Shown one piece after another: positions 2,149-60,750 of a stretch of 64,000 bases of DNA (its first letter is position 1; the number at the start of each line of letters is the position of its first letter). The position numbers were made by a program, and so were the translations under genes. Origin of the DNA: Eledone cirrhosa (lineage: Eukaryota); assembly GCA_964016885.1 (NCBI GenBank), contig OZ024764.1, positions 2,108,001-2,172,000 on the forward strand, written 5' to 3'. The notes under the pieces were generated by a model. It was not told the DNA's origin. It ran no database searches and was given only the letters and a program-made list of their open reading frames with translations.

Positions 2149-2306
2149 TGTAAAGTCTGTAAAATATAACTGGTTTTCATGTATCAGTGTGAACCATCTT
2201 ATCAAATGTTGAGTATTACATTTAAAAAGAATAATTTGTATAGAACCTTACTGCTTTTTCAAATATATATATATATATAGACAATATTCCCCCAATCCCT
2301 CCCCTG

Positions 2307-3564
2307 CAAAGTGGTTGTGTAGGTGTCACAACAAAAAGTACCCAGTCCACACTGTAAAGTGGTCATGTAGGTGTCACAACAAAAAGTACCCAGTCCACAC
2401 TATAAAGTGGTCATGTAGGTGTCACAACAAAAAGTACCCAGTCCACACTGTAAAGTGGTCATGTAGGTGTCACAACAAAAAGTACCCAGTCCACACTGTA
2501 AAGTGGTCATGTAGGTGTCACAACAAAAGCACCCAGTACACACTGTAAAGTGGTCATGTAGGTGTCACAACAAAAAGCACCCAGCCCACACTGTAAAGTA
2601 GTCATGTAGGTGTCACAACAAAAAGTACCCAGTCCACACTGTAAAGTAGTCATGTAGGTGTCACAACAAAAAGTACCCAGTCCACACTGTAAAGTAGTCA
2701 TGTAGGTGTCACAACAAAAAGTACCCAGTCCACACTGTAAAGTAGTCATGTAGGTGTCACAACAAAAAGCACCCAGCCCACACTGTAAAGTAGTCATGTA
2801 GGTGTCACAACAAAAAGTACCCAGTCCACACTGTAAAGTGGTCATGTAGGTGTCACAACAAAAAGTACCCAGTCCACACTGTAAAGTGGTCATGTAGGTG
2901 TCACAACAAAAAGTACCCAGCCCACACTGTAAAGTGGTCATGTAGGTGTCACAACAAAAGCACCCAGTACACACTGTAAAGTGGTCATGTAGGTGTCACA
3001 ACAAAAAGCACCCAGCCCACACTGTAAAGTAGTCATGTAGGTGTCACAACAAAAAGTACCCAGTCCACACTGTAAAGTAGTCATGTAGGTGTCACAACAA
3101 AAAGTACCCAGTCCACACTGTAAAGTAGTCATGTAGGTGTCACAACAAAAAGTACCCAGTCCACACTGTAAAGTAGTCATGTAGGTGTCACAACAAAAAG
3201 CACCCAGCCCACACTGTAAAGTAGTCATGTAGGTGTCACAACAAAAAGTACCCAGACCACACTGTAAAGTAGTCATGTAGGTGTCACAACAAAAAGTACC
3301 CAGTCCACACTGTAAAGTAGTCATGTAGGTGTCACAACAAAAAGTACCCAGTCCACACTGTAAAGTGGTCATGTAGGTGTCACAACAAAAAGTACCCAGT
3401 CCACACTGTAAAGTAGTCATGTAGGTGTCACAACAAAAAGCACCCAGCCCACACTGTAAAGTAGTCATGTAGGTGTCACAACAAAAAGTACCCAGTCCAC
3501 ACTGTAAAGTGGTCATGTAGGTGTCACAACAAAAGCACCCAGTACACACTGTAAAGTGGTCATG
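2307..3564. repeat. 48-bp minisatellite, about 26 copies (array A)
   Basis: Unit AAAAAGTACCCAGTCCACACTGTAAAGTGGTCATGTAGGTGTCACAAC. Confidence 0.95.
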
Positions 3565-4470
3565 CCAAAAGAGAGAGAGTTGGTTTCTAACATAGATACA
3601 AGACTCTCTCATTGGAATTTACACAACACCAACTAGGTAGATATGTATGTATGCCTGCATGTGTGTGTGTGCAGGTATGGATGTTATTGTATGTGTGGAT
3701 GTGTATATTTTGAGTTGTATGTGTACATGTGTATATGCTTTGTATCTGTACATGTGTATATGCAGTTATTAGATGCAAAATTTTTGGAATGTTTTACATA
3801 TTTTTACTGTTCCATTAATGGATTGTACTTGTAATATCCTAACTAGTTGTGTTCTTTCTGTTCCTGTGAAGCCTAGCTTCTCAAGATTTGTATTGAGGCA
3901 GTTACTAAAATACCCCAGTGCCCCAATAATCACAGGTATAAATATGAAGGTGTAATCAGGGTGGAGTATCTGCAGATTTCTCATCAGTTCTGCATAAATG
4001 TTCTTCTTTTCACTAATCTTTGATATTATATTGGCATCTGCTGGGCAGCTAATTTCCACTACTGTGCATACTTTCTTCTGCCTGTCCCATATCATAATAT
4101 CTGGTCTGTTATGCCTGCATTTTATTGGGGTTTTTACTGGAACATTCCACCAGTACTCTTTCATATTATGTATATGGATGTCTTCCACATTGTTGTAGCT
4201 TTTAATGTGTTTATTATCGGGGCTATCATTTTTACAAACTGCATTGTACAGTGTTTTAGCCACTATATCATGCCTCATAGGTAGATAGTACCGCGATGAC
4301 ATCTTTGGACAGCTGCTGATGACATGGGTGTTATCCTCGATGTTAGTTCTGCAGAGTCTTCACTTGTTATCACATCTAGGTGTTTTGCCTGCATCCCTAT
4401 CTCTTTTGTGAATCAGATATTTCATGCTGATCTCCTGTTCCTGGATTGCAAAAGTGTATCCTTCAAAGTG
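3565..4470 (-). mobile_element. 3' fragment of an RLE-type (R4/Dong-like) non-LTR retrotransposon
   Basis: Translation shows EGYTFAIQEQEI, a degenerate CCHC (*RLCRTNIEDNTHVISSC), RHD, and the endonuclease motif RPDIMIW...VVEISCP. 3' UTR is shared with 19123-19800. Confidence 0.8.
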
Positions 4471-4652: not shown

Positions 4653-4683
4653 CATGTATGTATGTATATATGTATATATATAT

Positions 4684-5027
4684 GGAGGCACATGGCTTAG
4701 TGGTTAGAGCATTGGCCTTGCAATCGAAAGGTTGTGAGTTCAATTCTCAAACCGGGTGATGTGTTGTTTCCTTAAGCAAGACACTTTATTTCACATTGCT
4801 CCAGTTTACTCAGCTGTAGAAATGAGATGATAGGGACTGGGGTCCCTATCATTCCACTGTACAGTGGTCGTGGAGGTGCCACGGCAAAAAAGCACCCAGC
4901 ACTCACTGTAAATGAGGTTGGTGTTAGGAAGGGCATCCAGCTGTAGAAATCAAGCCAGAATCAGTTCCCATCCCACCCTTGCAAGCAGGGAAAAGCGGAC
5001 GTAAAATGAAATGATGAAATGAAATGA
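4684..5027 (+). mobile_element. tRNA-derived CORE-like SINE, family 1
   Basis: A box TGGCTTAGTGG, B box GAGTTCAATTC, CORE-like TCCTTAAGCAAGACACTTT, AGGAAGGGCATCCAGC, and an ATGA/ATG tail. Five near-full copies occur in the window. Confidence 0.85.
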
Positions 5028-5035
5028 TATATAAA

Positions 5036-5185
5036 ATAGAAATGGCTTGTACAGGACTAGAACTGTTTCATTCAAAGGAAATCATTGAATGAAACAGTTC
5101 TAGTCCTGTAGAAGCCATTTCTATATTAAATATTTATACTCTGCTATGTATTGAGTACCTTACTCACCGTGATTACTCCCAAACA
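5036..5185 (+). repeat. Fold-back element (40-bp arms at 5036-5075 and 5085-5124) plus unique tail
   Basis: Arms are reverse complements with one mismatch around a 9-nt spacer. Flanked by TA-rich sequence. Confidence 0.85.
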
Positions 5186-8840: not shown

Positions 8841-9195
8841 ATCATCATTCATCATCATCATCATCATTTCATTTTACGTCCACTTTTTCCCTGCTTGCAA
8901 GGGTGGGACAGGAACTGATTCTGGCTTGATGTCTACAGCTGGATGCCCTTCCTAACACCAACCTCATTTACAGTGAGTGCTGGGTGCTTTTTTGCCGTGG
9001 CACCTCCACGACCACTTTGCAGTGGAATGATAGGGACCCCAGTCCCTATCATCTCATTTCTACAGCTGAGTAAACTGGAGCAATGTGAAATAAAGTGTCT
9101 TGCTCAAGGAAACAACACACCACCCGGTCTGAGAATTGAACTCACAACCTTTCGATTGCAAGGCCAATGCTCTAACCACTAAGCCATGTGCCTCC
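8841..9195 (-). mobile_element. SINE family 1
   Basis: Reverse complement of 4684-5027. Confidence 0.85.
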
Positions 9196-9213
9196 ATATA
9201 TATGCATGTGCCT

Positions 9214-9274
<61 letters not shown>

Positions 9275-9473
9275 TTCTCAACCTGATTAGTTCTATCGTT
9301 GCTCTGGTATATATATTGTGTGTTTAGCCTACCACAATGTTCGATTTGTCAAGCTATTTAAACATGTTATTATTCTAAGGACCTATCTTATCGAGTGCTT
9401 TGCTAACTCATCATTTCATATAAGTAGGCCGAATTCACTTGCAAACCGCCAGAGATTCGATTTTATTGATTTC

Positions 9474-9512
<39 letters not shown>

Positions 9513-9514
<2 letters not shown>

Positions 9515-9765
9515 GATATTAAACAAATGGAAACTATATTTATAAAACCATATTTATTTCATTATACATATTTCAGGGATACCATATTAAAAATATGGCA
9601 TGCCTTCTTCAGATAAAATACAATATATAAGCAGTTTTATAAATAAATTTGACGTACCATAAATATTGATCAACTTCCATTTGAGAAGTTGGTTTGGTAG
9701 TGCTTTATATCAGTTATAAAATATTTACTCGTTGTAACCCAACAATTTTAAATAAAACTTTTGCA
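9513..9765 (-). mobile_element. Hammerhead-bearing short element inserted in (TA)n
   Basis: Both ends match 41049-41492 in reverse orientation. (TA)n on both sides. Confidence 0.65.
9555..9620 (-). ncRNA. Type-I hammerhead ribozyme
   Basis: Minus strand reads TATTTTAT-CTGAAGA-AGGCATGCCATA-loop-TATGGTATCCCT-GAAA-TATGTA-T-A-ATGAAATA. Stem I is 8 bp and stem II about 11 bp. Confidence 0.75.
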
Positions 9766-9804
9766 TATATATATATATATGCCCCCCCCCCCCCCCCCCC
9801 CCCA

Positions 9805-10075
9805 CCGCAAGGTGGTCGTGGAGGTGCCACGGCAAAAAGCACCCAGCCCACACTGTAAAGTGGACGTGTAGGCGCCACGAAAAAGCACCCAGGACTCACT
9901 GTAAATGAGGTTGGTGTTAGGAAGGGCATCCAGCTGTAGAAATCAAGCCAGATCAGTTCCTGTATGAGCAAGGCATGGTCAGCCGACCAGACACTGCCCA
10001 CAACAGGACAACCCGTCTAACCCATGCTAGCGTGGAAGAACGGACGTAAAACGGTGATGATGATGATGATGATGA
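9805..10075 (+). mobile_element. 3' part of a SINE family 1-related element with two 48-bp-like internal units
   Basis: AAAAAGCACCCAGCCCACACTGTAAAGTGGACGTGTAGG..., then AGGAAGGGCATCCAGC and a (GAT)n tail. Confidence 0.75.
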
Positions 10076-18955: not shown

Positions 18956-19122
18956 AACTCCAGATTAACAAGACTCACTATTTAGCCTTAATAGTTTTGA
19001 ATATCGAAAACCCTACTTCAGTATTGAGTACTCTTTCCTCTCAGCCGGCAACTGCATATGGATCCTTTTTTTATATAAACATACTCACATACATACATAT
19101 ATACATATATACATACACACAT

Positions 19123-19800
19123 TAAAAGCTACAGCAATGTGGAAGACATCCATGTACATAATATGAAAGAGTACTGGTGGAAAGTTCCAGTAAAAACCCC
19201 AATAAAATGCAGGCATAACAGACCAGATATTATGATATGGGACAGGCAGAAGAAAACATGCACAGTAGTGTAAATTAGCTGCCCAGCAGATGCCAATATA
19301 ATATCAAAGATTAGTGAAAAGGAGAATATTTATGCAGAACTGATGAGAAATCTGCAGATACTCCACCCTGATTACACCTTCATATTTATACCTGTGATTA
19401 TTGGGGCACTGGGGTATGTTAGTAACTGCCTCGATACAAATCTTGAGAAGCTGGGCTTCACAGGAACAGAAAGAACACAACTAGTTAGGAAATTACAAGT
19501 ACAATCCATTAATGGAACAGTAAAAATGTGTAAAACATTCCAAAAATTTTGCATCTCATAACTGCATATACACATGTACAGATACAAAGCATACGTACAT
19601 GCACAGATGCAACTCAAAACATCCACATCCACACATACAATAACATCCATACCTGCACACACACACATGCAGGCATACATACATATCTACCTAGTTGGTG
19701 TTGTGTAAATTCCAATGAGAGAGTTTTGTGTCTATGTTAGAAACCAACTCTCTCTCTTTTGGCAAACATTTGTGAAATTATAAAACCAGAAGAACATACA
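19123..19800 (+). mobile_element. 3' fragment of the R4-like RLE retrotransposon, second copy
   Basis: Highly similar to the reverse complement of 3565-4205. An in-frame TAA replaces the E of VEISCP. Ends in (TACA)n. Confidence 0.8.
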
Positions 19801-22907: not shown

Positions 22908-24052
22908 CAGTTGTCCCCCGGTATTTGCGGGGGTTACTTTCCTGGAGCATTCGCGAATATTGGACGTGGTCCATAAAAATGCCTACAAACATCAAAATAC
23001 AATGTAAAATATAATAAAAAAAGAAGGAGAGTCTTATACGAAGGGGCGTCCAATAGGCCAGCAAATACAGTATATTGTTGTCCGGAGAGAAAGGCATCTG
23101 TCCTCAGTCCTCTCAACCTCGTCCACCATATAACCTCTTTCACCATAGCCACCGTACAGAGGAAAACCACCTCTCTTTCATTTTTGGATACATAGATGGA
23201 TAGACAGTTAGAGAGATAGATAGACAGATAGATATAAAGATATAGGTAGATAGATAGATAGATAGATTTCTTTATTAGCCACAAGGGCACAACAAGAAAG
23301 GGGACAATACAAAGACATGCCGGGGATTTTACATACAGTCGTGTAAAAAATATAAAAACAAACAATTTCAACAAGCGAAATCCCCAATAGGGGGGAGGCG
23401 CCACAAATGGGTTGTTTAATACCCCGTAGATAGAACAACCCTCAACTTTAGGAGCATGTTGTGCAAGTGCTCCTTTCTTCCTTTTGCTCTCTTCCTCAAC
23501 CTACAGGCTTATAAACAGAGAAAGCCCAATGACTCGGGCCATTTTCGCTTCATCCACCCACCTTTCAGTAAATTTACTGGGGTACAGTGCCTCTCTCTCC
23601 ACCCTGATTCTCCTTCTAAAGTGATACTTAAAGAAGGGAATCAATTGTTGTCTGGAGACAATGGCATCTGTCCTCAGTCCTCTCAACCTCGTCCACCATA
23701 TAACTTCTTTCACCATAGCCACCGTACAGAGGAAAACTGCCTCTCTTTCGTTTTTGAAAGAGTCTGGCAGTTTGATCCTTACTATGGACTCGGCAGTCAA
23801 CTGTATTTGTCCCATACGCGACAGCAGTTGTTCTGCATAGTTCCACAGGTCGCTTACGCCCGGGCAGTGTACAATTGCGTGCAGAACTGTTTCAATGTCC
23901 TTTGTTGTTGATAATTTAGTGTCAAAAAAGATATTTAAAAAATTGCGGAAGATATTCCGTGAATATTCGGTGGTTTCCACGAACAATTATTAGGTGGGTT
24001 CTAAAGGAAACTTTACGAATAACCGGGAGACCACGAATGCCGAGGTTCACCG
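22908..24052. mobile_element. pogo/Tigger-like MITE with nested Tx1 LINE fragments
   Basis: TA-flanked degenerate TIRs CAGTTGTCCCCCGGTATTTGCGG and the reverse complement CGGTGAACCTCGGCATTCGTGG. Confidence 0.55.
23188..23905 (-). mobile_element. 5'-truncated Tx1-like LINE related to 53014-58640
   Basis: ETVLHAIVHCPGVSDLW...KEVIWWTRLRGLR...SLFISL* aligns with the ORF2 C-terminus at 57824-58405. 3' UTR ends AATAAAGAAA followed by (TCTA)n. Confidence 0.9.
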
Positions 24053-29321: not shown

Positions 29322-29698
29322 CATCATCATCGTTTAAAGTCTATCTTCCACGCTAGCATGGGTTAGACGGGAGTTGTCCCACTTGAGGCAAGGTTGGTCG
29401 GGTGACCATGTCTCGCTCATATAGAACTGTCTGGCAGGTTTTTCTACGGCTGGATGCCCTTCCTAACACCAACCACGTTTACAGTGTGGACTGGGAGGTT
29501 TTTACCGTGTTACCTACACGGCCACATTACAGCGTGGACTGTGTGTTTTTGTCATGACACCTACACCTCTTTAGTTTGGACTGGATGTTGTGGCACCAAC
29601 ATAACTTTATAGAGAAAGGGGTGGTGTTGGTGGGAGTGGGAGGATGGAGTAGGGGTAGTGGGTTGGGGTGTATATTTGGTTAAGAGGTGCCTACTGAT
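29322..29698 (-). mobile_element. RTE 3'-UTR-type repeat (family C)
   Basis: Reverse complement of about 32243-32612. Confidence 0.75.
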
Positions 29699-31511: not shown

Positions 31512-31802
31512 TCATCATCATCATCAACGTTTAACGTCCGTGTTCCACGCTTGCATGGGTTTGGACGGGGGTTTTCCCACTTGAGGCAAGAGTGATTGTC
31601 TTGCTCGCATAGGACTGTCTGGCGGGTTTTCTACAGCTGGATGCCCTTCCTAACACCAACCACATTTACAGTGTGGGGCTGGGAGGTTTTTACCGTGTTG
31701 CTTACACGGCCACATTACAGCGTGGACTGTGTGTTTTTTGTCGCGACACCTACACGATCTCATTTGTTTCGGCCTGGATGTTGTGGCACCAACATAACTT
31801 TA
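31512..31802 (-). mobile_element. Family C repeat, 5'-truncated
   Basis: Matches 29322-29610. Confidence 0.75.
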
Positions 31803-31929: not shown

Positions 31930-32612
31930 CGGCAAAGCATAAATGAACTAAGGGAGAAATTAGGAATAAGAGGGATCAGATGCTGTTTACTCGAGAGAAG
32001 ACTACGTTGGTATGGTCATGTGATACGCATGAAAGACGACAGCTGTATAAAAAAGTGCAGGGCGATCAAAATAGACGGTAGCCACAGAGTAGGCAGACCC
32101 AGAATAACCTGGGACGACTTGATAAATTCAGACTTCACACACTTACACCTCTCCAAGACAATGTCACTGGACTGAGATCTTTGGTGCTACACAGTAATAC
32201 AGAAGACCCGCCTTGCCTAAGTACAAAGCGAAACCTACTACAGTCAGTAGGCACCTCTTAACCAAAATACACCCTCGTCACACTAACCCTACCCCCACCG
32301 CCATCTACACCACCCCTTTCTCTGTAAAGTTATGTTGGTACCACAACATCCAGTCCGAAATAAATGAAGTCGTGTAGGTGTCACGACAAAAAAACACACA
32401 GTCCACGCTGTAATGTGGCCGTGTAGGCAACACGGTAAAAACCTTCCAGTCCACACTGTAAATGTGTTTGGTGTTAGGAAGGGCATCCAGCCGTAGAAAA
32501 CCTGCCAGACAGTCCTATGCGAGCAAGACAACCACTCTTGCTTCAAGTGGGACAATTCCCGTCCAGACCCATGCTAGCATGGAAGATGGACGTTAAACGA
32601 TGATGATGATGA
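31930..32612 (+). mobile_element. RTE LINE 3' end continuing into the long family C 3' UTR
   Basis: ELREKLGIRGIRCCLLERRLRWYGHVIRM...VGRPRITWDDL, then a UTR with 48-bp-like units, AGGAAGGGCATCCAGC and (GAT)n. Confidence 0.8.
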
Positions 32613-32850: not shown

Positions 32851-33038
32851 ACAAAGGAATTGTGGTAAGGAACCAGGTGGACCATAACACACCAGAGTAC
32901 TCAATACTTAGGGTAGTAGAGTGGTTAATATAAAACAAGTATGATCCCGAAGGCAGAGCTCAAGCCGTTTCGATGGCTATTTCCACAAATAGCCGTCGAA
33001 ACGGCTTGAGCTCTGCCGTCGGGGTCTTGAATATTTTC

Positions 33039-34780: not shown

Positions 34781-35191
34781 CATGTAGGTTAAATGCATTT
34801 GGATAACAAATTAGATTTGCTATATTGTCCTAGATGTGGTTGGTCTGAATAAAAGATGAGATGGTCATTATTGGAACCACTTTGGTGATAGAGCTGTGGT
34901 AAACCATGGTAACCTACAACAACAGCAACAGCAACAACAACAACAACAACTCTAATGACACCAGCGGACAATATTAAAATGCCAAAATGACAAGAATTAG
35001 GAGAGATTTGGTAATATAATGATGATGATGATGATGGTCAGTCACGTGACATTGGTGTGTGAGAATGGAGGCAGCAAAAACATGTTAGACCATTACTCAC
35101 CAGAGTACTCAATACTAATATGAAAAATCAGCAGGAGTCCCGAATTTTTTCATATATATACATATATATATTTGTATGCATATACGTGTAT

Positions 35192-35531
35192 GGAGGTACA
35201 TGGCTTAGTGGTTAGAGCATTGGCCTTGCAATCGAAAGGTTGTGAGTTCAATTCTCAGATCGGGTGATGTGTTGTTTCCTTGAGCAAGACACTTTATTTC
35301 ACATTGTTCCAGTTTACTCAGCTGTAGAAATAAGATGATAGGGACTGGGGTCCCTATCATTCCACTGCAAAGTGGTCGTGGAGGTGCCACGGCAAAAAAG
35401 CACCCAGCACTCACTGTAAATGAGGTTGGTGTTAGGAAGGGCATCCAGCTGTAGAAATCAAGCCAGAATCAGTTCCTGTCCCACCCTTGCAAGCAGGGAA
35501 AACGAACGTAAAATGATGATGATGATGATGA
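35192..35531 (+). mobile_element. SINE family 1
   Basis: Matches 4684-5027. Confidence 0.85.
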
Positions 35532-36009
35532 TATATATATACACACACAAAAACAAGATGGCGTAGGACAGAACAAAGGAGAGGCACAAAACAAAGAAAA
35601 GAATCCCCGGTCCCTGATGAGGTCACAGAATGTGTGACAAAAGAACTTTGACAATATATGAACAACTGCCCGGTCGTGGAACCAACTAACCAACCGGAAA
35701 TTTATAAATTTCTTAAATTTATAATTTAATTTATAATAAATTGGAGTTAAAGCAACTGGTGAGTGTGTTTCTTATTGGCAACATGACCCTCCCAAAGTAT
35801 AACAAAATATATATATATATAACGAAGGAGGTGTGGTAAGGAACCAGATGAACCATAACGCCCCAGAGTACTCAATACTTAGAATAGTAGAGTAGGTAAT
35901 AGGAAAATGTTTAACCCAGAGCCCAAGCCGTAATGTACTGGGTATTTGCTGGCCTTGTGCTAAAAGTAGAAACAATTATTTTTTGTAATATATCAAATCA
36001 AAATTACAT

Positions 36010-36356
36010 TCATCATCATCATCATCATTTCATTTTACGTCCGCTTTTTCCCTGCTTGCAAGGGTGGGACGGGAACTGATTCTGGCTTGATTTCTACAGC
36101 TGGATGCCCTTCCTAACACCAACCTCATTTACAGTGAGTGCTGGGTGCTTTTTTGCCATGGCACCTCCACGATCACTTTACAGTGGAATGATAGGGACCC
36201 TAGTCCCTATCATCTCATTTCTACAGCTGAGTAAACTAGAGCAATGTGAAATAAAGTGTCTTGCTCAAGGAAACAACACATCACCCGGTCTGAGAAATGA
36301 ACTCACAACCTTTCGATTGCAAGGCCAATGCTCTAACCAGTAAGCCATGCGCCTAC
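36010..36356 (-). mobile_element. SINE family 1
   Basis: Reverse complement of 4684-5027. Confidence 0.85.
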
Positions 36357-36399
36357 ATTATTAAATCTTATTTTGTTTCTTGTAAATCATTTTTTTCAA

Positions 36400-40142: not shown

Positions 40143-40160
40143 TTTATATATATATATATA

Positions 40161-40501
40161 TCATCATCATCATCATTTCATTTTACGTCTGCTTTTCCCT
40201 GCTTGCAAGGGTGGGATGGGAACTGATTCTGGCTTGATTTCTACAGCTGGATGCCTTTCCTAACACCAACCTCATTTACAGTGAGTGCTGGGTGCTTTTT
40301 TGCCGTGGCACCTCCACGACCACTTTGCAGTGGAATGATAGGGACCCCAGTCCCTATCATCTCATTTCTACAGCTGAGTAAACTGGAGCAATGTGAAATA
40401 AAGTGTCTTGCTCAAGGAAACAACACATCACCCAGTCTGAGAATTGAACTCACAACCTTTCGATTGCAAGGCCAATGCTCTAACCACTAAGCCATGTGCC
40501 T

Positions 40502-40503
<2 letters not shown>
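40161..40503 (-). mobile_element. SINE family 1
   Basis: Reverse complement of 4684-5027. Confidence 0.85.
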
Positions 40504-40551: not shown

Positions 40552-40777
40552 TCATCATCATCATCATCATCATCAGGTTTAGCGTCCGTGTTCCACGCTT
40601 GCATGGGTTTGGACGGGGGTTTTCCCACTTGAGGCAAGAGTGGTTGTCTTGCTCGCATAGGACTGTCTGGCGGGTTTTCTACAGTTGGATGCCCTTCCTA
40701 ACACCAACCACATTTACAGTGTGGGGCTGGGAGGTTTTTACCGTGTTGCCTACACGGCCACATTACAGCGTGGACTG
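40548..40777 (-). mobile_element. Family C repeat, truncated
   Basis: Matches 31512-31730. Confidence 0.75.
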
Positions 40778-40792
40778 TATATATATATATAT

Positions 40793-40929
40793 ATATTTAT
40801 TAAAATAACAGATTAAAGTTTAAGCAAAGAATCGCTGCTTTCACCCTTAACGGGATCTTCTGAAGATCCCGTTAAGGGTGAAAGCAGCGATTCTTTGCTT
40901 AAACTTTAATCTGTTATTTTAATAAATAT
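40793..40929. repeat. Perfect palindrome with 68-bp arms centred on T40861
   Basis: Arms read as exact reverse complements. The apex is TCTTC-T-GAAGA. Confidence 0.9.
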
Positions 40930-41012: not shown

Positions 41013-41051
<39 letters not shown>

Positions 41052-41165
41052 AAGGTTCTATTTAAAATTGTTGGGATACAACAAGTAAATATTTTTATAA
41101 CTGATATAAAGCACTCGACAAGTATTTGGAGTAGATATACGAAACTATATTTATAAAACCATATT

Positions 41166-41230
41166 TATTTCATTATACATATTTCAGGGATACCAAATTA
41201 AATTATGGTATGCCTTCATCAGACAAAATA
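41166..41230 (-). ncRNA. Type-I hammerhead ribozyme (inverted copy)
   Basis: Reverse complement of 41385-41449. Confidence 0.7.
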
Positions 41231-41384
41231 CAATATATAACAGTTTTACAAATAAGCTTTGACGTACCCTTTTAAAAAGCAACCATTATGCTTCCATTAT
41301 GCTTCCAACAGGATGGCTTCCAAAAATAATGGTTGCATTTTAATAGGGTACGTCAAAGCTTATTTGTAAAACTGTTATATATTG

Positions 41385-41449
41385 TATTTTGTCTGATGAA
41401 GGCATACCATAATTTAATTTGGTATCCCTGAAATATGTATAATGAAATA
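41385..41449 (+). ncRNA. Type-I hammerhead ribozyme
   Basis: Reads TATTTTGT-CTGATGA-AGGCATACCA-loop-TGGTATCCCT-GAAA-TATGTA-T-A-ATGAAATA. Confidence 0.75.
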
Positions 41450-41619
41450 AATATGGTTTTATAAATATAGTTTCCATTTGTTTAATATCGTATATCTATA
41501 TATATATATAGTGATGGCTGCAATGATAGTTTTCATGGAGATGGTATTTAAAAAACTGTTGCAATCTGACTTCCATATCCTGTCGAAACCACCCATCTTA
41601 ACACATGTGTATCTCTCAC

Positions 41620-42038: not shown

Positions 42039-42231
42039 TTATTTTTATCTAAAGATATTTTTTTTCCAATTCCACCCTGCCTGTCCCCTCAATCTATCTT
42101 ATTTCTCATTCCTTCTTCTGATGAAGGACTAGCATCTGAAACGTTAAGACCCTCTTCCTGCTATATCAAGCTTTAACCTAATATATTCCTTCCATATACT
42201 GTACCAATTGTGTTGTTATTTCTGTTTACCT

Positions 42232-47106: not shown

Positions 47107-50100
47107 GGAGCCATGACAAAAGTACCCAGTCCACACTGTAAAGTGGTCATGTAGGTGTCACAACAAAAAGTACCCAGCCCACACTGTAAAGTGGTCATGT
47201 AGGTGTCACAACAAAAAGCACCCAGTCCACACTGTAATGTGGTCATGTAGGTGTCACAACAAACAACACCCAGTCCACACTGTAAAGTGGTTATGTAGGT
47301 GTCATGACAAAGAGCACCCAGTCCACACTGTAAAGTGGTCATGTAGGTGTCACAACAAACAACACCCAGTCCACACTGTAATGTGGTCATGTAGGTGTCA
47401 CAACAAACAACACCCAGTCCACACTGTAAAGTAGTCATGTAGGTGTCACAACAAAAAGTACCCAGCCCACACTGTAAAGTGGACATGTAGGTGTCACAAC
47501 AAAAAGCACTAAGTCCACACTGTAAAGTGGTCATGTAGGTGTCATGACAAAGAGCTCCCAGTCCACACTGTAAAGTGGTCATGTAGGTGTCACTACAAAA
47601 AGTACCCAGTCCACACTGTAAAGTGGTCATGTAGGTGTCACAACAAACAACACCCAGTCCACACTGTAAAGTGGTTATGTAGGTATCACAACAAAAAGTA
47701 CCCAGTCCACACTGTAAAGTGGTCATGTAGGTGTCACAACAAAAAGCACCCAGTCCACACTGTAAAGTGGTCATGTAGGTGTCATGACAAAGAGCACCCA
47801 GTCCACACTGTAAAGTGGTCATGTAGGTGTCACTACAAAAAGTACCCAGTCCACACTGTAAAGTGGTCATGTAGGTGTCACAACAAAAAGCACCCAGTCC
47901 ACACTGTAAAGTGGTCATGTAGGTGTCATGACAAAGAGCACCCAGTCCACACTGTAAAGTGGTCATGTAGGTGACATGACAAAAAGTACCCAGTCCACTG
48001 TAAAGTGGTCATGTAGGTGTCACAACAAACAACACCCAGTCCACACTGTAAAGTAGTCATGTAGGTGTCACAACAAAAAGCACCCAGTCCACACTGTAAA
48101 GTGGTCATGTAGGTGTCTCAACAAAAAGTACCCAGTCCACGCTGTAAAGTGGTCATGTAGGTGACATGACAAAAAGAACCCAGTCCACTGTAAAGTGGTC
48201 ATGTAGGTGTCACAACAAAAAGTACCCAGTCCACACTATAAAGTGGTCATGTAGGAGACATGACAAAAAGTACCCAGTCCACACTGTAAAGTGGTCATGT
48301 AGGTGTCACAACAAAAAGTACCCAGTCCACACTGTAAAGTGGTCATGTAGGTGTCACAGCAAACAACACCCAGTCCACACTGTAAAGTGGTCATGTAGGT
48401 GTCACAGCAAACAACACCCAGTCCACACTGTAAAGTGGTCATGTAGGTGTCACATAAACAACACCCAGTCCACACTGTAAAGTGGTCATCTAGGTGTCAC
48501 AACAAAAAGTACCCAGTCCACACTGTAAAGTGGTCATGTAGGTGTCACAACAAAAAGTACCCAGTCCACACTGTAAAGTGGTCATGTAGGTGTCACAACA
48601 ACAAGTACCCAGTCCACACTGTAAAGTGGTCATGTAGGTGTCACAGCAAACAACACCCAGTCCACACTGTAAAGTGGTCATGTAGGTGTCACAACAAACA
48701 ACACCCAGTCCACACTGTAAAGTGGTCATCTAGGTGTCACAACAAAAAGTACCCAGTCCACACTGTAAAGTGGTCATGTAGGTGTCACAACAAAAAGTAC
48801 CCAGTCCACACTGTAAAGTGGTCATGTAGGTGTCACAACAAAAAATACCCAGTCCACACTGTAAAGTGGTCATGTAGGTGTCACAACAAAAAGTACCCAG
48901 TCCACACTGTAAAGTGGTCATGTAAGTGTCACAACAAAAAGTACCCAGTCCACACTGTAAAGTGGTCATGTAAGTGTCACAACAAAAAGTACCCAGTCCA
49001 CACTGTAAAGTGGTCATGTAAGTGTCACAACAAAAAGTACCCAGTCCACACTGTAAATGTGGTCATGTAGGTGTCACAACAAAAAATACCCAGTCCACAC
49101 TGTAAAGTGGTCATGTAGGTGTCACAACAAAAAGTACCCAGTCCACACTGTAAAGTGGTCATGTAGGTGTCACAACAAAAAGTACCCAGTCCACACTGTA
49201 AAGTGGTCATCTAGGTGTCACAACAAAAAGTACCCAGTCCACACTGTAAAGTGGTCATGTAGGTGTCACAACAAAAAGTACCCAGTCCACACTGTAAAGT
49301 GGTCATCTAGGTGTCACAACAAAAAGTACCCAGTCCACACTGTAAAGTGGTAGTGTAGGTGTCACAACAAAAAGTACCCAGTCCACACTGTAAAGTGGTC
49401 ATGTAGGTGTCACAACAAAAAGTACCCAGTCCACACTGTAAAGTGGTCATGTAGTTGTCACAACAAACAACACCCAGTCCACACTGTAAAGTGGTCATGT
49501 AGGTGACACAACAAAAAGTACCCAGTCCACACTGTAAATGTGGTCATGTAGGTGTCACAACAAAAAGTACCCAGTCCACACTGTAAAGTGGTCATGTAGG
49601 TGTCACAACAAAAAGTACCCAGTCCACACTGTAAAGTGGTCATGTAGGTGTCACAACAAAAAGTACCCAGTCCACACTGTAAAGTGGTCATGTAGGTGTC
49701 ACAACAAAAAGTACCCAGTCCACACTGTAAAGTGGTCATGTAAGTGTCACAACAAAAAGTACCCAGTCCACACTGTAAAGTGGTCATGTAGGTGACACAA
49801 CAAAAAGTACCCAGTCCACACTGTAAAGTGGTCATGTAGGTGTCACAACAAAAAGTACCCAGTCCACACTGTAAAGTGGTCATGTAGGTGTCACAACAAA
49901 AAGTACCCAGTCCACACTGTAAAGTGGTCATGTAGGTGTCACAACAAAAAGTACCCAGTCCACACTGTAAAGTGATCATGTAAGTGTCACAACAAAAAGT
50001 ACCCAGTCCACACTGTAAATGTGGTCATATAGGTGTCACAACAAAAAGTACCCAGTCCACACTGTAAAGTGGTCATCTAGGTGTCACAACAAAAAGTACC

Positions 50101-51133
50101 CAGTCCACACTGTAAAGTGGTTGTGTAGGTGTCACAACAAAAAGTACCCAGTCCACACTGTAAAGTGGTCATGTAGGTGTCACAACAAAAAGTACCCAGT
50201 CCACACTGTAAAGTGGTCATCTAGGTGTCACAACAAAAAGTACCCAGTCCACACTGTAAAGTGGTCATGTAGGTGTCACAACAAAAAGTACCCAGTCCAC
50301 ACTGTAAAGTGGTCATCTAGGTGTCACAACAAAAAGTACCCAGTCCACACTGTAAAGTGGTTGTGTAGGTGTCACAACAAAAAGTACCCAGTCCACACTG
50401 TAAAGTGGTCATGTAGGTGTCACAACAAAAAGTACCCAGTCCACACTGTAAAGTGGTCATGTAGGTGTCACAACAAAAAGTACCCAGTCCACACTGTAAA
50501 GTGGTCATCTAGGTGTCACAACAAAAAGTACCCAGTCCACACTGTAAAGTGGTCATGTAGGTGTCACAACAAAAAGTACCCAGTCCACACTGTAAAGTGG
50601 TCATGTAGGTGTCACAACAAAAAAGCACCCAGTCCACACTGTAAAGTGGTCATGTAGGTGTCACAACAAAAAGTACCCAGTCCACACTGTAAAGTGGTCA
50701 CGTAGGTGTCACAACAAAAAGTACCCAGTCCACACTGTAAAGTGGTCATCTAGGTGTCACAACAAAAAGTACCCAGTCCACACTGTAAAGTGGTCCTGTA
50801 GGTGTCACAACAAAAAGTACCCAGTCCACACTGTAAAGTGGTCATGTAGGTGTCACAACAAACAACACCCAGTCCACACTGTAAAGTGGTCATGTAGGTG
50901 TCACAACAAAAAGTACCCAGTCCACACTGTAAAGTGGTCATGTAGGTGTCACAACAAAAAGTACCCAGTCCACACTGTAAAGTGGTCATGTAGGTGTCAC
51001 AACAAAAAGTACCCAGTCCACACTGTAAAGTGGTCATGTAGGTGTCACAACAAAAAGTACCCAGCCCACACTGTAAAGTGATCATGTAGGTGTCACAACA
51101 AACAACACCCAGTCCACACTGTAAATGTGGTCA
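47107..51133. repeat. 48-bp minisatellite, about 84 copies (array B), running into a SINE 3' end (to about 51280)
   Basis: Same unit as 2307-3564. Followed by AAGAAGGGCATCCAGCTGTAGAAACC...ATGCTAGCATGGAA. Confidence 0.95.
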
Positions 51134-53013: not shown

Positions 53014-53224
53014 CTCGTATACGAGAGACGTGTGTTGACGTGTGTGAACAAGCTCGGCTACCGAGTCGGATTTACTTACTCAAAAAGTGAGTTTTGATTA
53101 ATTTTTTTATACTGTAATATACGTTAACCCCTTGCCTTGGTCGTCAAACTTTGAGTTTATTTATTTTCGCCCCTTTTTGGGGCGAATTTTCCAGTTAAAA
53201 ATTTATTACGGCAAACTAATTGAA

Positions 53225-54946
53225 ATGGACGGAATTTTCACATCTCATCCTAACGTGAAAGCCACGCCCCCTAAGAAAGGTGATACAGAGAAGCTAGAAG
53301 CACAAGGCTCTAAGTCTTCCCTCCTCACTTCTGCAAAAGAAACATGGAACACGGAATTAAAAGAAAAATTTGTAAAAATGGGTGAAAACCCAGAAAGTCA
53401 CATAAACGCAGACAAAAACAACAACGACAATAACAGCAATAGTCACAACACCAACCAAGGAAAAAATAACGATAACACCAAACAAAGCGAACCCACTACT
53501 GGTGCCTCCTTTGCACAGGCGGTCCGGAAAACACAAACCTGCAAGCAACTGGACATTACAACTCTGAGAGAAAAGATGAAGGAAGCGAAACAGTATGTAA
53601 CTTTCAAAGAAGGAGGAGACTTCACAATCACCTCCCCACAAGAAATCAAAAGAGACACGACGCTAAGAACGATATCTTTCAGAACAATTTCCAACATAAC
53701 AAGGAAACCAACTCAATTATCCCAAAAAGAGATTGAGCTGGTCCTAAAAAATGTGTGGAGTGATATATCGTTCATACAAAAAGGGCCACTCTATGGGAAT
53801 ATAACGGTCCTAATGAAGGATCAATTGACGGCCAGGAAATACTCTGTGGCACCAATTGTTTCCAAGCTACATACATTTTTCCCCACATATTTAGGGAAAA
53901 GAACGCAGAAGATAAGGGTCTCCGGAATCCGGCCAAATGCATGCATTTCCTGGGTACTAACAGGATTTTTAGAAGACGAGGACGGAATCCTCTCAGTAGG
54001 AGAAGTCACCACAGACGTTTTCGGCGGTTTGAGCGTGGAGGTTCTGGTCCAAATGAGACCAGAACGAATAGCTAGAATACCACAGAGGGTGTCCCTCGAT
54101 GGAGAAACATTTATATATATTTCAGCCGAGGGTAGGAGGCCCATATGTTACTACTGTTCAAGCAGGGGTCATCTAAGGGCTGCTTGTCCTCAATTGACAA
54201 AAAAAAAGGCTCTTTTGCCTACACCCCACACACCACCACCACCACCACCACCACCACCACAACAACAACAAAAACAACAGGGAAAAATAACACAAGACAC
54301 GGCCCCACCCAAAACAACTCCCAAAACACACACAAATACAACAAAACCCCAAAATACACCACTACCCGACAGCACGGACGAGGACCCAGTGGAAACGGCA
54401 CCTAGTGACGAAGAGGGGGAACCCTTCCAACCTGTAAAAAGGAAAAAAAGAAAGCACCACTCGAACATAAACGAAACAAACACACAACCACCAACAAAAA
54501 CAAAACAAACAGAACAAACAAAATCCGCCCCACCCCAAAACATAACACATACAACAAAACGTAAGCACACACAAGAACAACAAACAAACACAACACAAAT
54601 AAAACAGTATACATACATTAACACAAATAACAAAGAACTAGTAAAAACAATACACAAAGACCCTTTGGTGGAAACTGAAGGGCAATTCTTTGCAAGCGCG
54701 GCCAACAAACCGCATTTAAAAATGATAAGACTCCCAATGGACACCTATGCAAAACTAAGAGAGAACTTTCCTGAGGACGTGGGGAAAACATGTACTCGAC
54801 CCTATAACCGCGTCCTCTTGAAACGTTTCCCCACCCACACCTCACCAAACACCCCCACTCCACCACAGAACAACACCCCACCAAACAACCCCTCCAATAC
54901 GCCCATGGATATTGTGCAACCTGCTCCTCAGGAGCCGAACAGGTAG
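53225..54946 (+). CDS. LINE ORF1p, gag-like nucleic-acid-binding protein (573 aa from the first ATG)
   Basis: Uninterrupted ORF with the zinc knuckle CYYCSSRGHLRAAC (CX2CX4HX4C), SFAQAV, a basic KRKKRK stretch and a P/T/Q-rich tail. Confidence 0.9.
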   Translation: MDGIFTSHPNVKATPPKKGDTEKLEAQGSKSSLLTSAKETWNTELKEKFVKMGENPESHINADKNNNDNNSNSHNTNQGKNNDNTKQSEPTTGASFAQAVRKTQTCKQLDITTLREKMKEAKQYVTFKEGGDFTITSPQEIKRDTTLRTISFRTISNITRKPTQLSQKEIELVLKNVWSDISFIQKGPLYGNITVLMKDQLTARKYSVAPIVSKLHTFFPTYLGKRTQKIRVSGIRPNACISWVLTGFLEDEDGILSVGEVTTDVFGGLSVEVLVQMRPERIARIPQRVSLDGETFIYISAEGRRPICYYCSSRGHLRAACPQLTKKKALLPTPHTPPPPPPPPPQQQQKQQGKITQDTAPPKTTPKTHTNTTKPQNTPLPDSTDEDPVETAPSDEEGEPFQPVKRKKRKHHSNINETNTQPPTKTKQTEQTKSAPPQNITHTTKRKHTQEQQTNTTQIKQYTYINTNNKELVKTIHKDPLVETEGQFFASAANKPHLKMIRLPMDTYAKLRENFPEDVGKTCTRPYNRVLLKRFPTHTSPNTPTPPQNNTPPNNPSNTPMDIVQPAPQEPNR

Positions 54947-54967
54947 GTCCTTCCTCTTTTAACCAAC

Positions 54968-57900
54968 ATGGCTGATATAAGAGTTGGGTGTCTGAATGTA
55001 CGTGGCCTGGGACTGTCTTGGAAACAAGGCAAACTTTTAAACGATCTCAGGTCGCATAGAATGGATGTAATGGCTATTTGCGAGTCCAGGATCAGCAGCG
55101 AGCACCAACTGGCGCCCCTCTTCGACGACTTTGAGATCTTCGCATCTCTCTGTCAACCGGGGGGTGGGGGTGGAGTTGTCGTTCTGCTGCGAAAACACCT
55201 GGGCCTCGCCATACAGAAGGTGCACCTGGACCCGGAGGGTCGACTGGTGGTTTTAGACGTCGGCAGTAGTGAAAGTGGAGCCCTTAGACTAATAGCTGTG
55301 TACGCCCCTTTTTGGGCAGCGCGGCCGGAATACTTCCAACGTCTGGAAACTTTTCTGGGAACGTCCCGCTCCTTGCTTTTAGTGGGGGACTGGAATGGTA
55401 TCCTGGATGCACGTTGGGACTATGTAGGGGCATGTGCCAATAGAGGGGGGTGTAAAAGCCTCAAAAGGTTAATCGGCCGATTTGACCTGGCCGATAGATA
55501 TCGACTAGATTTTCCGACTGTACCACTATGGACGTGGACCAATCGCAGTGGAACATCTAGGTCGTACCTAGATAGGGTCCTAGTTAGAGAGAACGATAGG
55601 GACACATTTAGCTGTCCAAAAATGTTCATGGTTGACTATTCGGATCACAAGTTAGTGACCTGCATAGCCAACCTTGATAGAACCCATAGACAGGGACCCG
55701 GTTACTGGAAGCTGAACTTGTCCTTACCGAGAAGCAAAGCTTACAGTAAACGGATTAGCACGTTAGTCAAGCAGAGTTTGACAGGGGCAATTGTCAACAA
55801 CAGGTGGTGGAGCTCTCTTAAGAGAGCAATTAGAATAGAATCGATAGGTTTTAGTCAGGAATTAGCAAGGGATAGGAACAAGACGGAAAGGGAATTAGTA
55901 GATAGAGTAGAAGAGGCGATTAGGAGTGGCAATGTAGCCGGCGTGCTGGCATCAAGAATGGCCTTAGACCAGTTCTTTGAGGTGAAGCATGAAGGCTGCG
56001 TTGTCAGGAGTAAAATACGTGCTCTGGGTAATGAGGGAGCCAAAGCTGTAAGCTGGGCCCGAGTGACAGAGGCAAAAAGTGGGAACAAGTCCACGATTCG
56101 GTCTTTGAAGGACCAGGATGGGCGTGTGATCCTTGAACCTGGGCAGATGTGTGCGGCCTTTCAGCGGCACTTTGCACGACTGTTCGAGAGGGGCGGCGCG
56201 CCGGGTGAGACTATGGATTTCAATCCATACCTCGACGGTCTGCCGCGCCTCTCGGACGCGGAGGCGAAGTCCTGCGAAAGGACGATTTCAGCTGCTGAGA
56301 TAGGGGCGGCGCTGAGCCAATGCGGCAAACGCAAATCCCCGGGTCTCGATGGTCTACCATACGAGCTATATGTAGCGATGCCGGACTTGTTCTCCGATAT
56401 CCTCGAAGCGGTCTACTGCAACTGGCAGCAGAACGGGAGAATTCCCAGTTCTGTGACCAAGGGCGTAGTTACGCTGGTGAGGAAGGATGAGAACAAGGGG
56501 GATGACATAAGTAACTTCAGGCCCATAACTCTGCTAAATACAGAGTTAAAGATTTTGGCCAAGGTGTTAGCGAAGAGGTTGGCGCTTGTCGTTGGAAACC
56601 TGGTGGGAGAAGCGCAGACATGCGCAATCCCGTCCAGGTCCATTCACGACAATCTCCACCTTATGCGATACATCATAGAGAGGGTAGGGAATGAACCCGG
56701 CTTTGGTGGGGCCCTGATCAACTTGGATCAATCTAAAGCTTTCGATAGGGTTGACCATCGTTACCTGGATGCGGTGCTCGCGGCGGCAGGCTTCGGACCC
56801 GTTTTCAGGGGTTGGATTGCTGCGATGCACAGCAGCAACGTCTGCTCAAGGGTCAAGGTGAACGGCCACCTCTCGGAGCCGTTCCAAATCATGCGATCCA
56901 TCCGACAGGGATGCCCTCTCTCCTCCCTACTGTATGTGCTGGCTCTTGAGCCACTACTGCGGAAGTTGGAGCGGTTGCAGGGCATCCCTTTGGAACCGGG
57001 ATTGCAGAAAGCGGCGTCGGCCTACGCCGATGACGTGACAGTAATGGTGTCGAAAACCTCGCAAATCGGTGAGATCGGCACCTTACTGGAGGAATATGAA
57101 AGGTTTACAGGAGCCAAGCTGAACCGGGACAAGTCCGTCGGTTTGCAACTCGGAACATGGAGAGGCAAACCGATGCCCTCCAACGACGTCGTCGGACGCT
57201 GGACGGAGGGCCCGGTGAAGCTGCTTGGGGTCTGGTTCGGACCAGACCTCCAGGTGGAGAAAAACTGGAACGAGGTAACGGCCAGGGTGTTTGCACTCAC
57301 CCAGAAGTGGGCCCAGTGCAAACTATCCCTGAAAGGTCGAGCGGAGGTGGCGAATACTTATATAGCATCCGTCATCTACTACCGCTTGACCGTCGTGCCT
57401 TGCCCAGTGAAAAGACTCGCCAAAATGGAGTGCGCGCTGTTCCAATTTCTTTGGAACAAGCGGACCCCTTTGGTGAGGAGATCCATCTGCTGTCAACACC
57501 CTTCGAAAGGAGGGCTGGGGATGCCGTGGCTACAGATGCGTAAACACGCATTAAGGCTACGGCACCTCCAGGTATTCCTCACCGGTCAACCGGTGTGGGC
57601 CCCGTTTGTGAGGCGAGCCTTTCCCAGACTCGTCTCGCTCACCGAGCTGCAATCCTGGGTCAAGCAAAGACCGAGAAAAGTGGGCGACTGGCACATTGAA
57701 TGTGCCCAGGCGCTCACGGCCCTCTGGAAAGCGGACCCGGCAATCAGTGGAGACTCCACCTCGACATTCTATAGAGGGTTGGTACGCAGCAGGTGCGACG
57801 ATGCTCTCTGAGAAGCTCTAGGCATGGAGGAAGATGAACTGGCCAGTCTGTTCGGTAGGACGTTTGGCCCTGGACCGATGGACAACTTCCAAAAGTCCCT

Positions 57901-58405
57901 GGCTTGGCAGTGCTACCGAGGGGCTCTACCCGTTCGAGACAAGCTCCACAGGCATGGGAGCCTGGGTAGAGATCCTTTGAATAAGATCTGTCCGAGATGC
58001 GTGCATGATGACGAAACCGTTGCGCACGCATTCGTACACTGCCCAGGCATTGCTGACCTGTGGGGCTATGTGGAACGACTACTGTCGAGGGTGGGACCAA
58101 TCCGGTTGACCACCGAGTCCATTGTCACGATCAAACCGCCTCCCCCTTTCAAAAACGAAGGAGAGGCGGTTTTTCTCTGTGTGGTAGCCATGGCTAAAGA
58201 AGTTGTATGGTGGACGAGGCTGAAAGGGCTGAGGTCAGACACCTTTCTCTCCGGCCAACAACTGGTCCCCTTTTTCAAATACCATTTTAAAAGAAGGATC
58301 AGAATGGAGAGAGAGGTGCTCTACCCCAGCAAGTTTTATGAAAGGTGGGTGAAAGTAGGGAGAATGGCCAGAGTGAATGGGTCTTCTCTCTATATCAGCC
58401 TGTAG
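54968..58405 (+). CDS. LINE ORF2p: APE endonuclease, reverse transcriptase and C-terminal CCHC finger, with one in-frame TGA at 57809-57811
   Basis: EN motifs LNVRG, YAP, GDWN, YLDR, SDH. RT motifs KSPGLDG, FRPITLLN, DQSKAFDRV, RQGCPLS, YADD. CPRC...HAFVHC lies in the same frame after the stop. Confidence 0.93.
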
Positions 58406-60545: not shown

Positions 60546-60548
<3 letters not shown>

Positions 60549-60750
60549 GGAGAAAGTATGACCCCGACGGCAGAGCTCAAGCCGTTTCGGCGGCTATTTC
60601 TGGACTACTTTAGTCCAGAAATAGTCGTCGAAACGGCTTGAGCTCTGCCGTCGGGGCCATACTTTCTCCTATTACCCACTCTACTACCCTAAGTATTGAG
60701 TACTCTGGTGCGTTATGGTCCACCTGGTTCCTAACCACAACTCCTCCATT
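60546..60750 (+). mobile_element. Fold-back element in (TA)n, family F
   Basis: 62-bp arms at 60546-60607 and 60611-60672 around the loop CTT, followed by a tail shared with 32851-32930 and 35821-35900. Confidence 0.8.

Follow-up and report, generated by a model that had tools for sequence, protein, structure and literature searches.

The element at positions 41049-41492 of the window (the whole stretch of 64,000 nucleotides that was analysed) is a young-looking head-to-head insertion of Penelope-like element (PLE) type, which belongs to an abundant hammerhead family. In the reading that we consider likely, two near-identical hammerhead ends were joined head-to-head in a TA tract, probably in one PLE event, and the resulting hairpin is predicted to silence both ribozymes. 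The element behaves as a truncated PLE would, and its formal assignment to the PLEs depends on a parent with RT and GIY-YIG domains. Its parts, and those of a second family copy in the window, are as follows.

41016..41047, no strand: left (TA)n tract, the inferred target (sequence)
41049..41140, minus strand: 3' tail of the family unit, in the left arm only, ~85-90 nt past the right-arm end (insert in X16 reads, joints)
41113..41120, minus strand: tail motif T[AG]T[CT]GAG[CT], chosen post hoc, also in the tails of four other palindromic elements
41141..41289, minus strand: left arm, an inverted, 5'-truncated copy with 15 nt missing where the tail begins (alignment, reads)
41166..41230, minus strand: left type-I hammerhead motif (C3 at 41222), with cleavage predicted after 41174 (descriptor scan)
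41290..41325, no strand: head-to-head junction (sequence, read starts and depth)
41326..41474, plus strand: right arm, a 5'-truncated copy (inverted-repeat alignment)
41385..41449, plus strand: right type-I hammerhead motif, predicted cut after A41441 (descriptor scan, folding)
41475..41498, plus strand: post-ribozyme segment, running into (TA)n (sequence)
9513..9765, minus strand: second family copy with the same two ends (self-comparison, sequence)
9555..9620, minus strand: type-I hammerhead of the second copy as a motif (C3 at 9612), with cleavage predicted after 9563 (descriptor scan)

The inverted-repeat arms (41141-41289 and 41326-41474) are 149 nt each, 99% complementary and 36 nt apart. 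They contain two mismatches, at 41271 and 41278, and the 130 bp given for the inverted duplication in the earlier note turned out to be the perfect part of these 149 bp. Within the junction, ~41290-41310 is local filler that contains an 11-nt tandem duplication, and ~41311-41325 is family sequence retained by the right arm only, with read pieces beginning at 41312-41313. The right arm terminates in the TA-like first bases of the tail, followed by (TA)n. The left arm spans to the tail end, and its 15-nt loss sits at a short microhomology. Both family copies are bordered by (TA)n at both ends (four of four ends in the window), and TA loose ends were found at both termini in the reads, in agreement with the targeting of TA microsatellites that had been proposed.

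The second copy is approximately 92-93% identical to the element at 41049-41492 and terminates at the identical two sites. It consists of a long arm with the ribozyme, a filler of ~37 nt (9662-9698) and an inverted arm that holds the last 67 nt of the tail only (9699-9764), and the hammerhead-bearing palindrome is not present in it. Its single hammerhead and its described differences at N7, in loop II and through G-U/A-U swaps in stems I and II were all found again.

Arms that are identical over 130 bp might also point to a single normal insertion that was later duplicated in inverted orientation at the DNA level by fold-back repair, or to an assembly artefact. Either would agree with the spacer at 41289-41303, where depth was 0 to 0.5 in all four read runs, even if such a gap proves nothing. 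However, the left arm has 92 nt of family tail that are missing from the right arm, and therefore it cannot have been copied from the latter. The second copy ends at the same two sites, the arms differ by two bases and the 15-nt gap, and the layout is common to four other elements in the window, all of which speaks against a later duplication and makes it unlikely. As the arms are identical over 130 bp although the family varies by 5-10% or more, the data fit one template and one event, which is the PLE insertion that we favor. A DNA transposon of MITE or foldback type that targets TA, and whose ribozyme-like motif arose by chance, would likewise be short, non-coding, palindromic and TA-flanked. 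However, the termini of the element show no inverted-repeat relation to one another, the palindrome lies inside the element and is missing from the second copy, the hammerhead motif is far beyond chance, and read depth is polar, so that such a transposon is scarcely credible here.

A type-I hammerhead has the core CUGANGA / GAAA / UH and three helices, with stem I open. Both strands of the window were scanned with a descriptor that demanded at least 4 bp in stem I, at least 3 bp in stem II and at least 2 bp in stem III. Four matches were obtained, three of which stem from this family (C3 at 41393 on the plus strand and at 41222 and 9612 on the minus strand, with H17 at 41441, 41174 and 9563, respectively), and the fourth (42118) is small and unrelated. 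All three family motifs have a stem I of 8 bp and a stem II of 9-13 bp. In the right motif, C3 is followed by N7 at 41397, the A-U closing pair 41400/41429, G12 at 41430 and a palindromic stem III at 41433-41440, and stem I extends to 41378/41455. When the 31.7 kb left after tandem-repeat masking were shuffled 200 times with dinucleotides kept, a mean of 0.01 matches each was reached, none with both stems of at least 8 bp, and 5000 shuffles of the second copy gave 0 descriptor matches. The strength of the family motif is far beyond chance. With regard to the claims of the earlier note, one type-I hammerhead with an intact core per strand was recovered (41393 on plus, 41222 on minus), the descriptor search proposed there retrieved the family motifs with no shuffle as strong, and the cut after A41441 agrees with the H17 position as a predicted site. 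The hammerheads called complete there are complete as motifs, a term that does not imply activity.

The proposed Rfam search gave a different result, as narrow scans of both family copies returned no hammerhead family at E up to 10. Over the whole window, at E up to 1, there were microsatellite-driven matches only among the 150 of 316 matches listed. The motifs are atypical in several respects: in both copies, stem II closes with A41400-U41429 (or with an extra A and a G-U pair), the conserved G10.1-C11.1 is absent, a C-C mismatch lies inside the long stem II, and stem III consists of a palindrome of 2 bp. As a side observation, loose ends before 41204 in the runs X1 and X4 reveal a subfamily in which C replaces U ahead of GAAA, and this subfamily would regain the usual stem II closing pair.

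The read evidence stems from four of the 18 listed runs, where X1, X4 and X16 carry species label A and X5 carries label B. The search listed no RNA run holding the family. X16 consists of RAD reads, and depth, also when summed over contigs, does not stand for copy number in any of the runs. Pieces aligned to the element in 4610 contigs of X1, 1525 contigs of X4, 32685 reads of X16 and 74 contigs of X5. This is a many-copy family common to two species labels, and the earlier expectation of a multi-copy family was met by the public-read counts. In X16, 3677 of 9794 reads with 39 start places contained a 15-nt insert behind 41140, which is the reverse complement of the right-end segment of the element (~41475-41489). 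Opposite-strand joints additionally tie 41137 and 41142 to 41482-41492. Therefore, the left 92 bases continue the inverted arm and do not form a 5' head. Read in the ribozyme sense, the family unit comprises an upstream region, the hammerhead, ~50 nt, a tail of ~85-90 nt and (TA)n. Contigs that cross the 41140 junction as it exists in the window had a depth of 31 in X1, compared to 88486 one base earlier. The 444 bp that had been described as one element are thus valid as the interval between the TA tracts, but not as the family unit, since the left 92 bp belong to the inverted arm as its 3' tail, and in the reads the unit reaches further 5' than in the window copy.

Upstream of 41311, loose ends demonstrate that the unit goes on in AT-rich sequence. 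The 30-nt loose end stops in all three frames, and no coding link to a PLE was seen in it. The ratio of upstream to downstream depth was 0.024 in X1, 0.005 in X5 and 0.037 in X16, and 0.64 in X4; the decay towards the 5' side may partly result from divergence from the reference. A coding function of the tail was ruled out by frame-breaking single-base deletions, which occurred in X16 at 41092 in 6442 of 9009 reads and at 41124 in 5222 of 11878 reads. Exact-pattern scans of metagenome contigs gave no match. Head-to-tail tandem units were found neither in the window nor among the joints listed (15 of 56).

The last result bears on the second half of the earlier label, Penelope/retrozyme-like. 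In a non-LTR retrozyme, tandem hammerhead repeats would be cut to monomers, circularized and re-inserted by a PLE. The metazoan non-LTR retrozymes described in the accessible text of PMC7229834 and of a 2026 preprint (bioRxiv 10.64898/2026.07.22.740005) are indeed alike in being short, non-coding, AT-rich, PLE-related and equipped with a type-I hammerhead. The family studied here combines such a hammerhead with no open frame, low GC and many copies, and the upstream part is overrepresented in X4 (ratio 0.64). The preprint, in the sections available, derives retrozymes from PLE pLTRs, so the two classes grade into each other. However, retrozymes are defined in these texts by head-to-tail units and circular RNAs, whereas the window copies are single or head-to-head, and the head-to-tail unit is absent from the window and from the joints listed (15 of 56). 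The boundaries of the copies also do not coincide with the cut site, with ends lying ~50 and ~140 nt downstream of it, and motifs of PLE type (PMC4209133, accessible part) share the long stem II and the palindromic stem III. A retrozyme is therefore decidedly unlikely. While that part of the label did not stand, the Penelope-like origin did, on account of layout, tail and truncation.

The PLE-type features found are a hammerhead in a terminal repeat, an inverted 5'-truncated copy, a one-end tail and a microsatellite or AT-rich target. According to the accessible text of Craig et al. (2021, PMC8557442), PLE insertions are truncated at the 5' side and often accompanied by an inverted copy that is likewise 5'-truncated; they have a tail of 30-40 bp at only one end and are biased towards microsatellites. 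Frangieh et al. (2024, PMC11167929), in the parts available, report that a purified PLE cleaves AT-rich DNA on both strands and extends both, that reverse transcription begins at two internal sites bounding the tail, and that hammerhead cleavage requires the protein. The window element resembles these insertions (PMC8557442, PMC11167929) in its 5' truncation, inverted copy, one-end tail, two ends downstream of the hammerhead, and microsatellite or AT-rich target, but its tail of ~85-90 nt is longer than the described 30-40 nt (PMC8557442) by a factor of two to three. For Naiads, which are without canonical hammerheads, a (TA)n bias is reported there, and for Neptune a microsatellite bias. In Schistosoma mansoni, opposite-strand hammerhead pairs 100-700 bp apart were regarded as probable truncated PLEs in the accessible text of Cervera and De la Pena (2014, PMC4209133), and such dual hammerheads showed low activity as dimers. 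The PLE hammerheads of that work are alike in being type-I, with a long helix II and a palindromic helix III suited to dimers, and are mostly single dispersed motifs, with opposite-strand pairs as in the window element. Unlike them, the window stem I is 8-14 bp (4-5 there) and the closing pair is A-U, and unlike in those systems, the parent ORF was not found in the 64,000-nt window.

In terms of mechanism, a PLE RT/GIY-YIG complex would nick both strands of one TA microsatellite, and each nick would prime reverse transcription, which would begin downstream of the ribozyme at one of two favored internal positions. At the opposite nicks, one cDNA would begin from the distal start and one from the proximal start. 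Both would stop after approximately 180-240 nt, and their ends would be joined with local filler. The ribozyme would act in the source RNA, probably as a stem III dimer or with protein help, and the doubled ribozyme in the window element would be a by-product. An autonomous PLE and a short non-coding derivative of one are about equally likely as that source RNA. No PLE RT or GIY-YIG domain was found in the window when 237 of 299 open frames of at least 45 aa were compared with Pfam, the 62 unscanned frames being other frames over the LINE at 53102-58405. This LINE was rejected as a partner, as it encodes an AP endonuclease and RT and is not a PLE.

Folding was considered separately for the ribozyme and for the complete palindrome, and all values below are predictions. 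The hammerhead alone is not the minimum-energy fold (-8.6 versus -13.1 kcal/mol). A dimer swapped via the self-complementary stem III reaches -28.8 kcal/mol, compared to 2 x -8.6 kcal/mol for two monomers and a two-strand minimum of -31.0 kcal/mol. The 334-nt palindrome folds with -229.7 kcal/mol (z -37), and the minus strand gives the same hairpin (-242). On the plus strand, formation of the ribozyme fold would incur a penalty of 97 kcal/mol in the whole transcript and of 47 kcal/mol in a transcript starting at 41200, and the penalty falls to 5.9 kcal/mol only for transcripts that start at or after 41250. On either strand, the antisense arm is transcribed ahead of the ribozyme. Self-cleavage of read-through transcripts from either strand, as the earlier note had envisaged, is unlikely according to these models because the antisense arm comes first and the 149-bp hairpin makes the ribozyme fold cost 97 kcal/mol. 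The double ribozyme in the window element probably does nothing. The intact state of both cores could suggest that the host has retained a two-way ribozyme device that cuts transcripts across the locus from either strand. However, intact cores are anyway expected of a young copy, and the leading antisense arm on both strands, together with the graded penalty above, renders such a device very improbable.

For the family as a whole, variant rows were mirrored onto one arm before counting. Among the 40 of 102 rows listed, 13 variable positions were found in the 65-nt ribozyme and 0 in the 12 core positions (P ~0.05; 0.051). The 13 sites are N7, four positions in loop II and eight in the stems. 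Pairing is kept by five stem variants (41386, 41424, 41428, 41437 and 41444), and by 41401 too if it is joined with 41428, the 41428 change being the commoner one. The variants at 41407 and 41422 each break a stem II pair, unless unlisted rows compensate. Altogether, this lends modest support to selection on the fold in the source RNA.

Tandem repeats occupy half of the window (32298 bases masked). All five local inverted repeats left after masking carry the half GAAA-stem III-UH, and each has a tail on one side only that runs up to a TA tract. Besides the element described above, these and related features are the following.

5029-5131, 32943-33026, 40793-40929 and 60546-60672: four further palindromic elements of three unrelated families
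35805-35931: tail of the 32943/60546 family
5149, 40970 and 60694 (plus), 32906 and 41120 (minus), also 9389 (plus) and 35877 (minus): matches of T[AG]T[CT]GAG[CT]
53102-58405, plus strand: nearly intact L1/Tx1-type LINE (Pfam), with fragments at 23074-23893

In the four palindromes, the hammerhead 3' half (stem III of 4-5 bp) lies in the arm, and a one-sided tail of ~53-86 nt leads to the TA tract. The fold-back point is loop II in three of them and a CUGAAGA core in the element at 40793. The motif T[AG]T[CT]GAG[CT], chosen post hoc, occurs in all five tails, 30-66 nt ahead of the TA tract, with a total of 14 matches over the 63.4 kb of unmasked strand. We lean towards regarding the shared tail motif as real, and it is possibly a recognition site for the PLE protein or a splice signal. 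Beside the second copy, an AT-rich stretch at 9290-9478 ends in (TA)n and may be the tail of another family; it has an 11-nt run around the tail motif in common with the hammerhead family tail.

Several further repeats were noted. Two copies of another family, at 55-180 and 42106-42231 (plus), are 87% identical. Both contain a minimal hammerhead of textbook form, with an extra A, a short stem II and a palindromic ACGU, which lies ~85-90 nt ahead of (TA)n; the copy at 42118 has a stem II mismatch. The LINE at 53102-58405 has a zinc knuckle in ORF1 and an AP endonuclease and RT in ORF2, with one stop ahead of the zf-RVT part. Its one named homologue among the 120 matches listed is from Argonauta hians (68% identity), a single name that makes an octopod host likely. 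The LINE was the sole retroelement match in the Pfam comparison (237 of 299 open frames). Two copies of one fragment without a Pfam match lie at 3565-4359 (minus) and 19113-19764, and we take their translation to resemble the restriction-like endonuclease end of an R2/R4-type LINE. A SINE-like repeat of 330-350 bp is present in five copies with 94-98% identity (4657-5011, 8846-9203, 35163-35541, 36007-36358 and 40151-40503). A related family is found at 9802-10066, 29322-29697, 31516-31802, 32244-32612 and 40577-40778, and long tandem arrays of 48-bp units (2300-3564 and 47107-51133) are similar to part of the SINE-like repeat.

The deviating run X4 is of unrecorded library type, and its contigs amount to 88 million letters, compared to 1381 million for X1. 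Its enrichment of the upstream part is 17- to 140-fold (ratio 0.64). In the 33 listed rows besides sense A>G, the median share of other letters was 3% in X4 versus 23% in X1. X4 looks like RNA from a subfamily near the window copy. Among the rows listed, four of the seven sense A>G rows were particular to X4 (41381 with 66%, 41416 with 46%, 41386 with 43% and 41412 with 40%), and the same sites reached at most 0.04% in X1, 0.6% in X16 and 0 in X5. Position 41424 (31% in X4) may be a fifth site. Only one of the other 33 listed rows was particular to X4 (41141 G>A, depth 35), which corresponds to a Fisher P of 0.002 for rows that are not independent. Over all places, A>G plus T>C accounted for 16 of 31 changes in X4 versus 10 of 54, 11 of 44 and 27 of 100 in the other runs (P 0.003-0.03); if transitions alone are considered, X4 still differs from X1 (P 0.04), but the contrasts with the other two runs are lost (P 0.28 and 0.64).

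These data suggest A-to-I editing of the family RNA, a reading that is unproven and to which we give a cautious preference. Several points count against it: X4 and X1 come from different samples, three of the four Gs also occur in a few genomic contigs, the loop that holds two of the sites is sensitive to alignment, and expression of one or two loci could mimic the pattern. Repeat-directed A-to-I editing is widespread in coleoid cephalopods (Albertin et al. 2022, PMC9068888), where it is likewise directed at repetitive elements, but the accessible text has no edited ribozyme. RNA editing was also raised as one possible source of the heterogeneity of mussel retrozymes (PMC7229834; bioRxiv 10.64898/2026.07.22.740005, accessible parts). 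Among the titles and abstract beginnings covered, there was none on natural editing of a retroelement hammerhead. When inosine was modelled as G at the five sites, no fold energy changed, and therefore no claim of an editing effect on the fold is made. That editing controls cleavage is doubtful. It would be a rather unlikely combination, taken as a whole, if a transcribed octopus subfamily were edited to 40-66% in stem I and loop II, ADAR thereby tuned cleavage and mobility, and the tail motif that unrelated families have in common were recognized by the PLE protein.

With regard to previous work, the layout is already known, and the addition made here is a cephalopod family of PLE hammerheads. 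The accessible part of PMC4209133 contains no cephalopod case, and titles and abstract beginnings yielded no hammerheads in cephalopods, with subscription papers, Repbase, repeat libraries and supplements lying outside this scope. For Octopus vulgaris, recently active Penelope families (30 families with 329 insertions) are described in the available text of PMC13282606, the supplement of which may hold the window hammerhead family. With two fixed ends, a long tail and a motif in five tails, the family is a natural test of the PLE internal-initiation model. Moreover, an abundant and possibly edited ribozyme RNA in heavily editing animals would make it directly testable whether editing gates cleavage.
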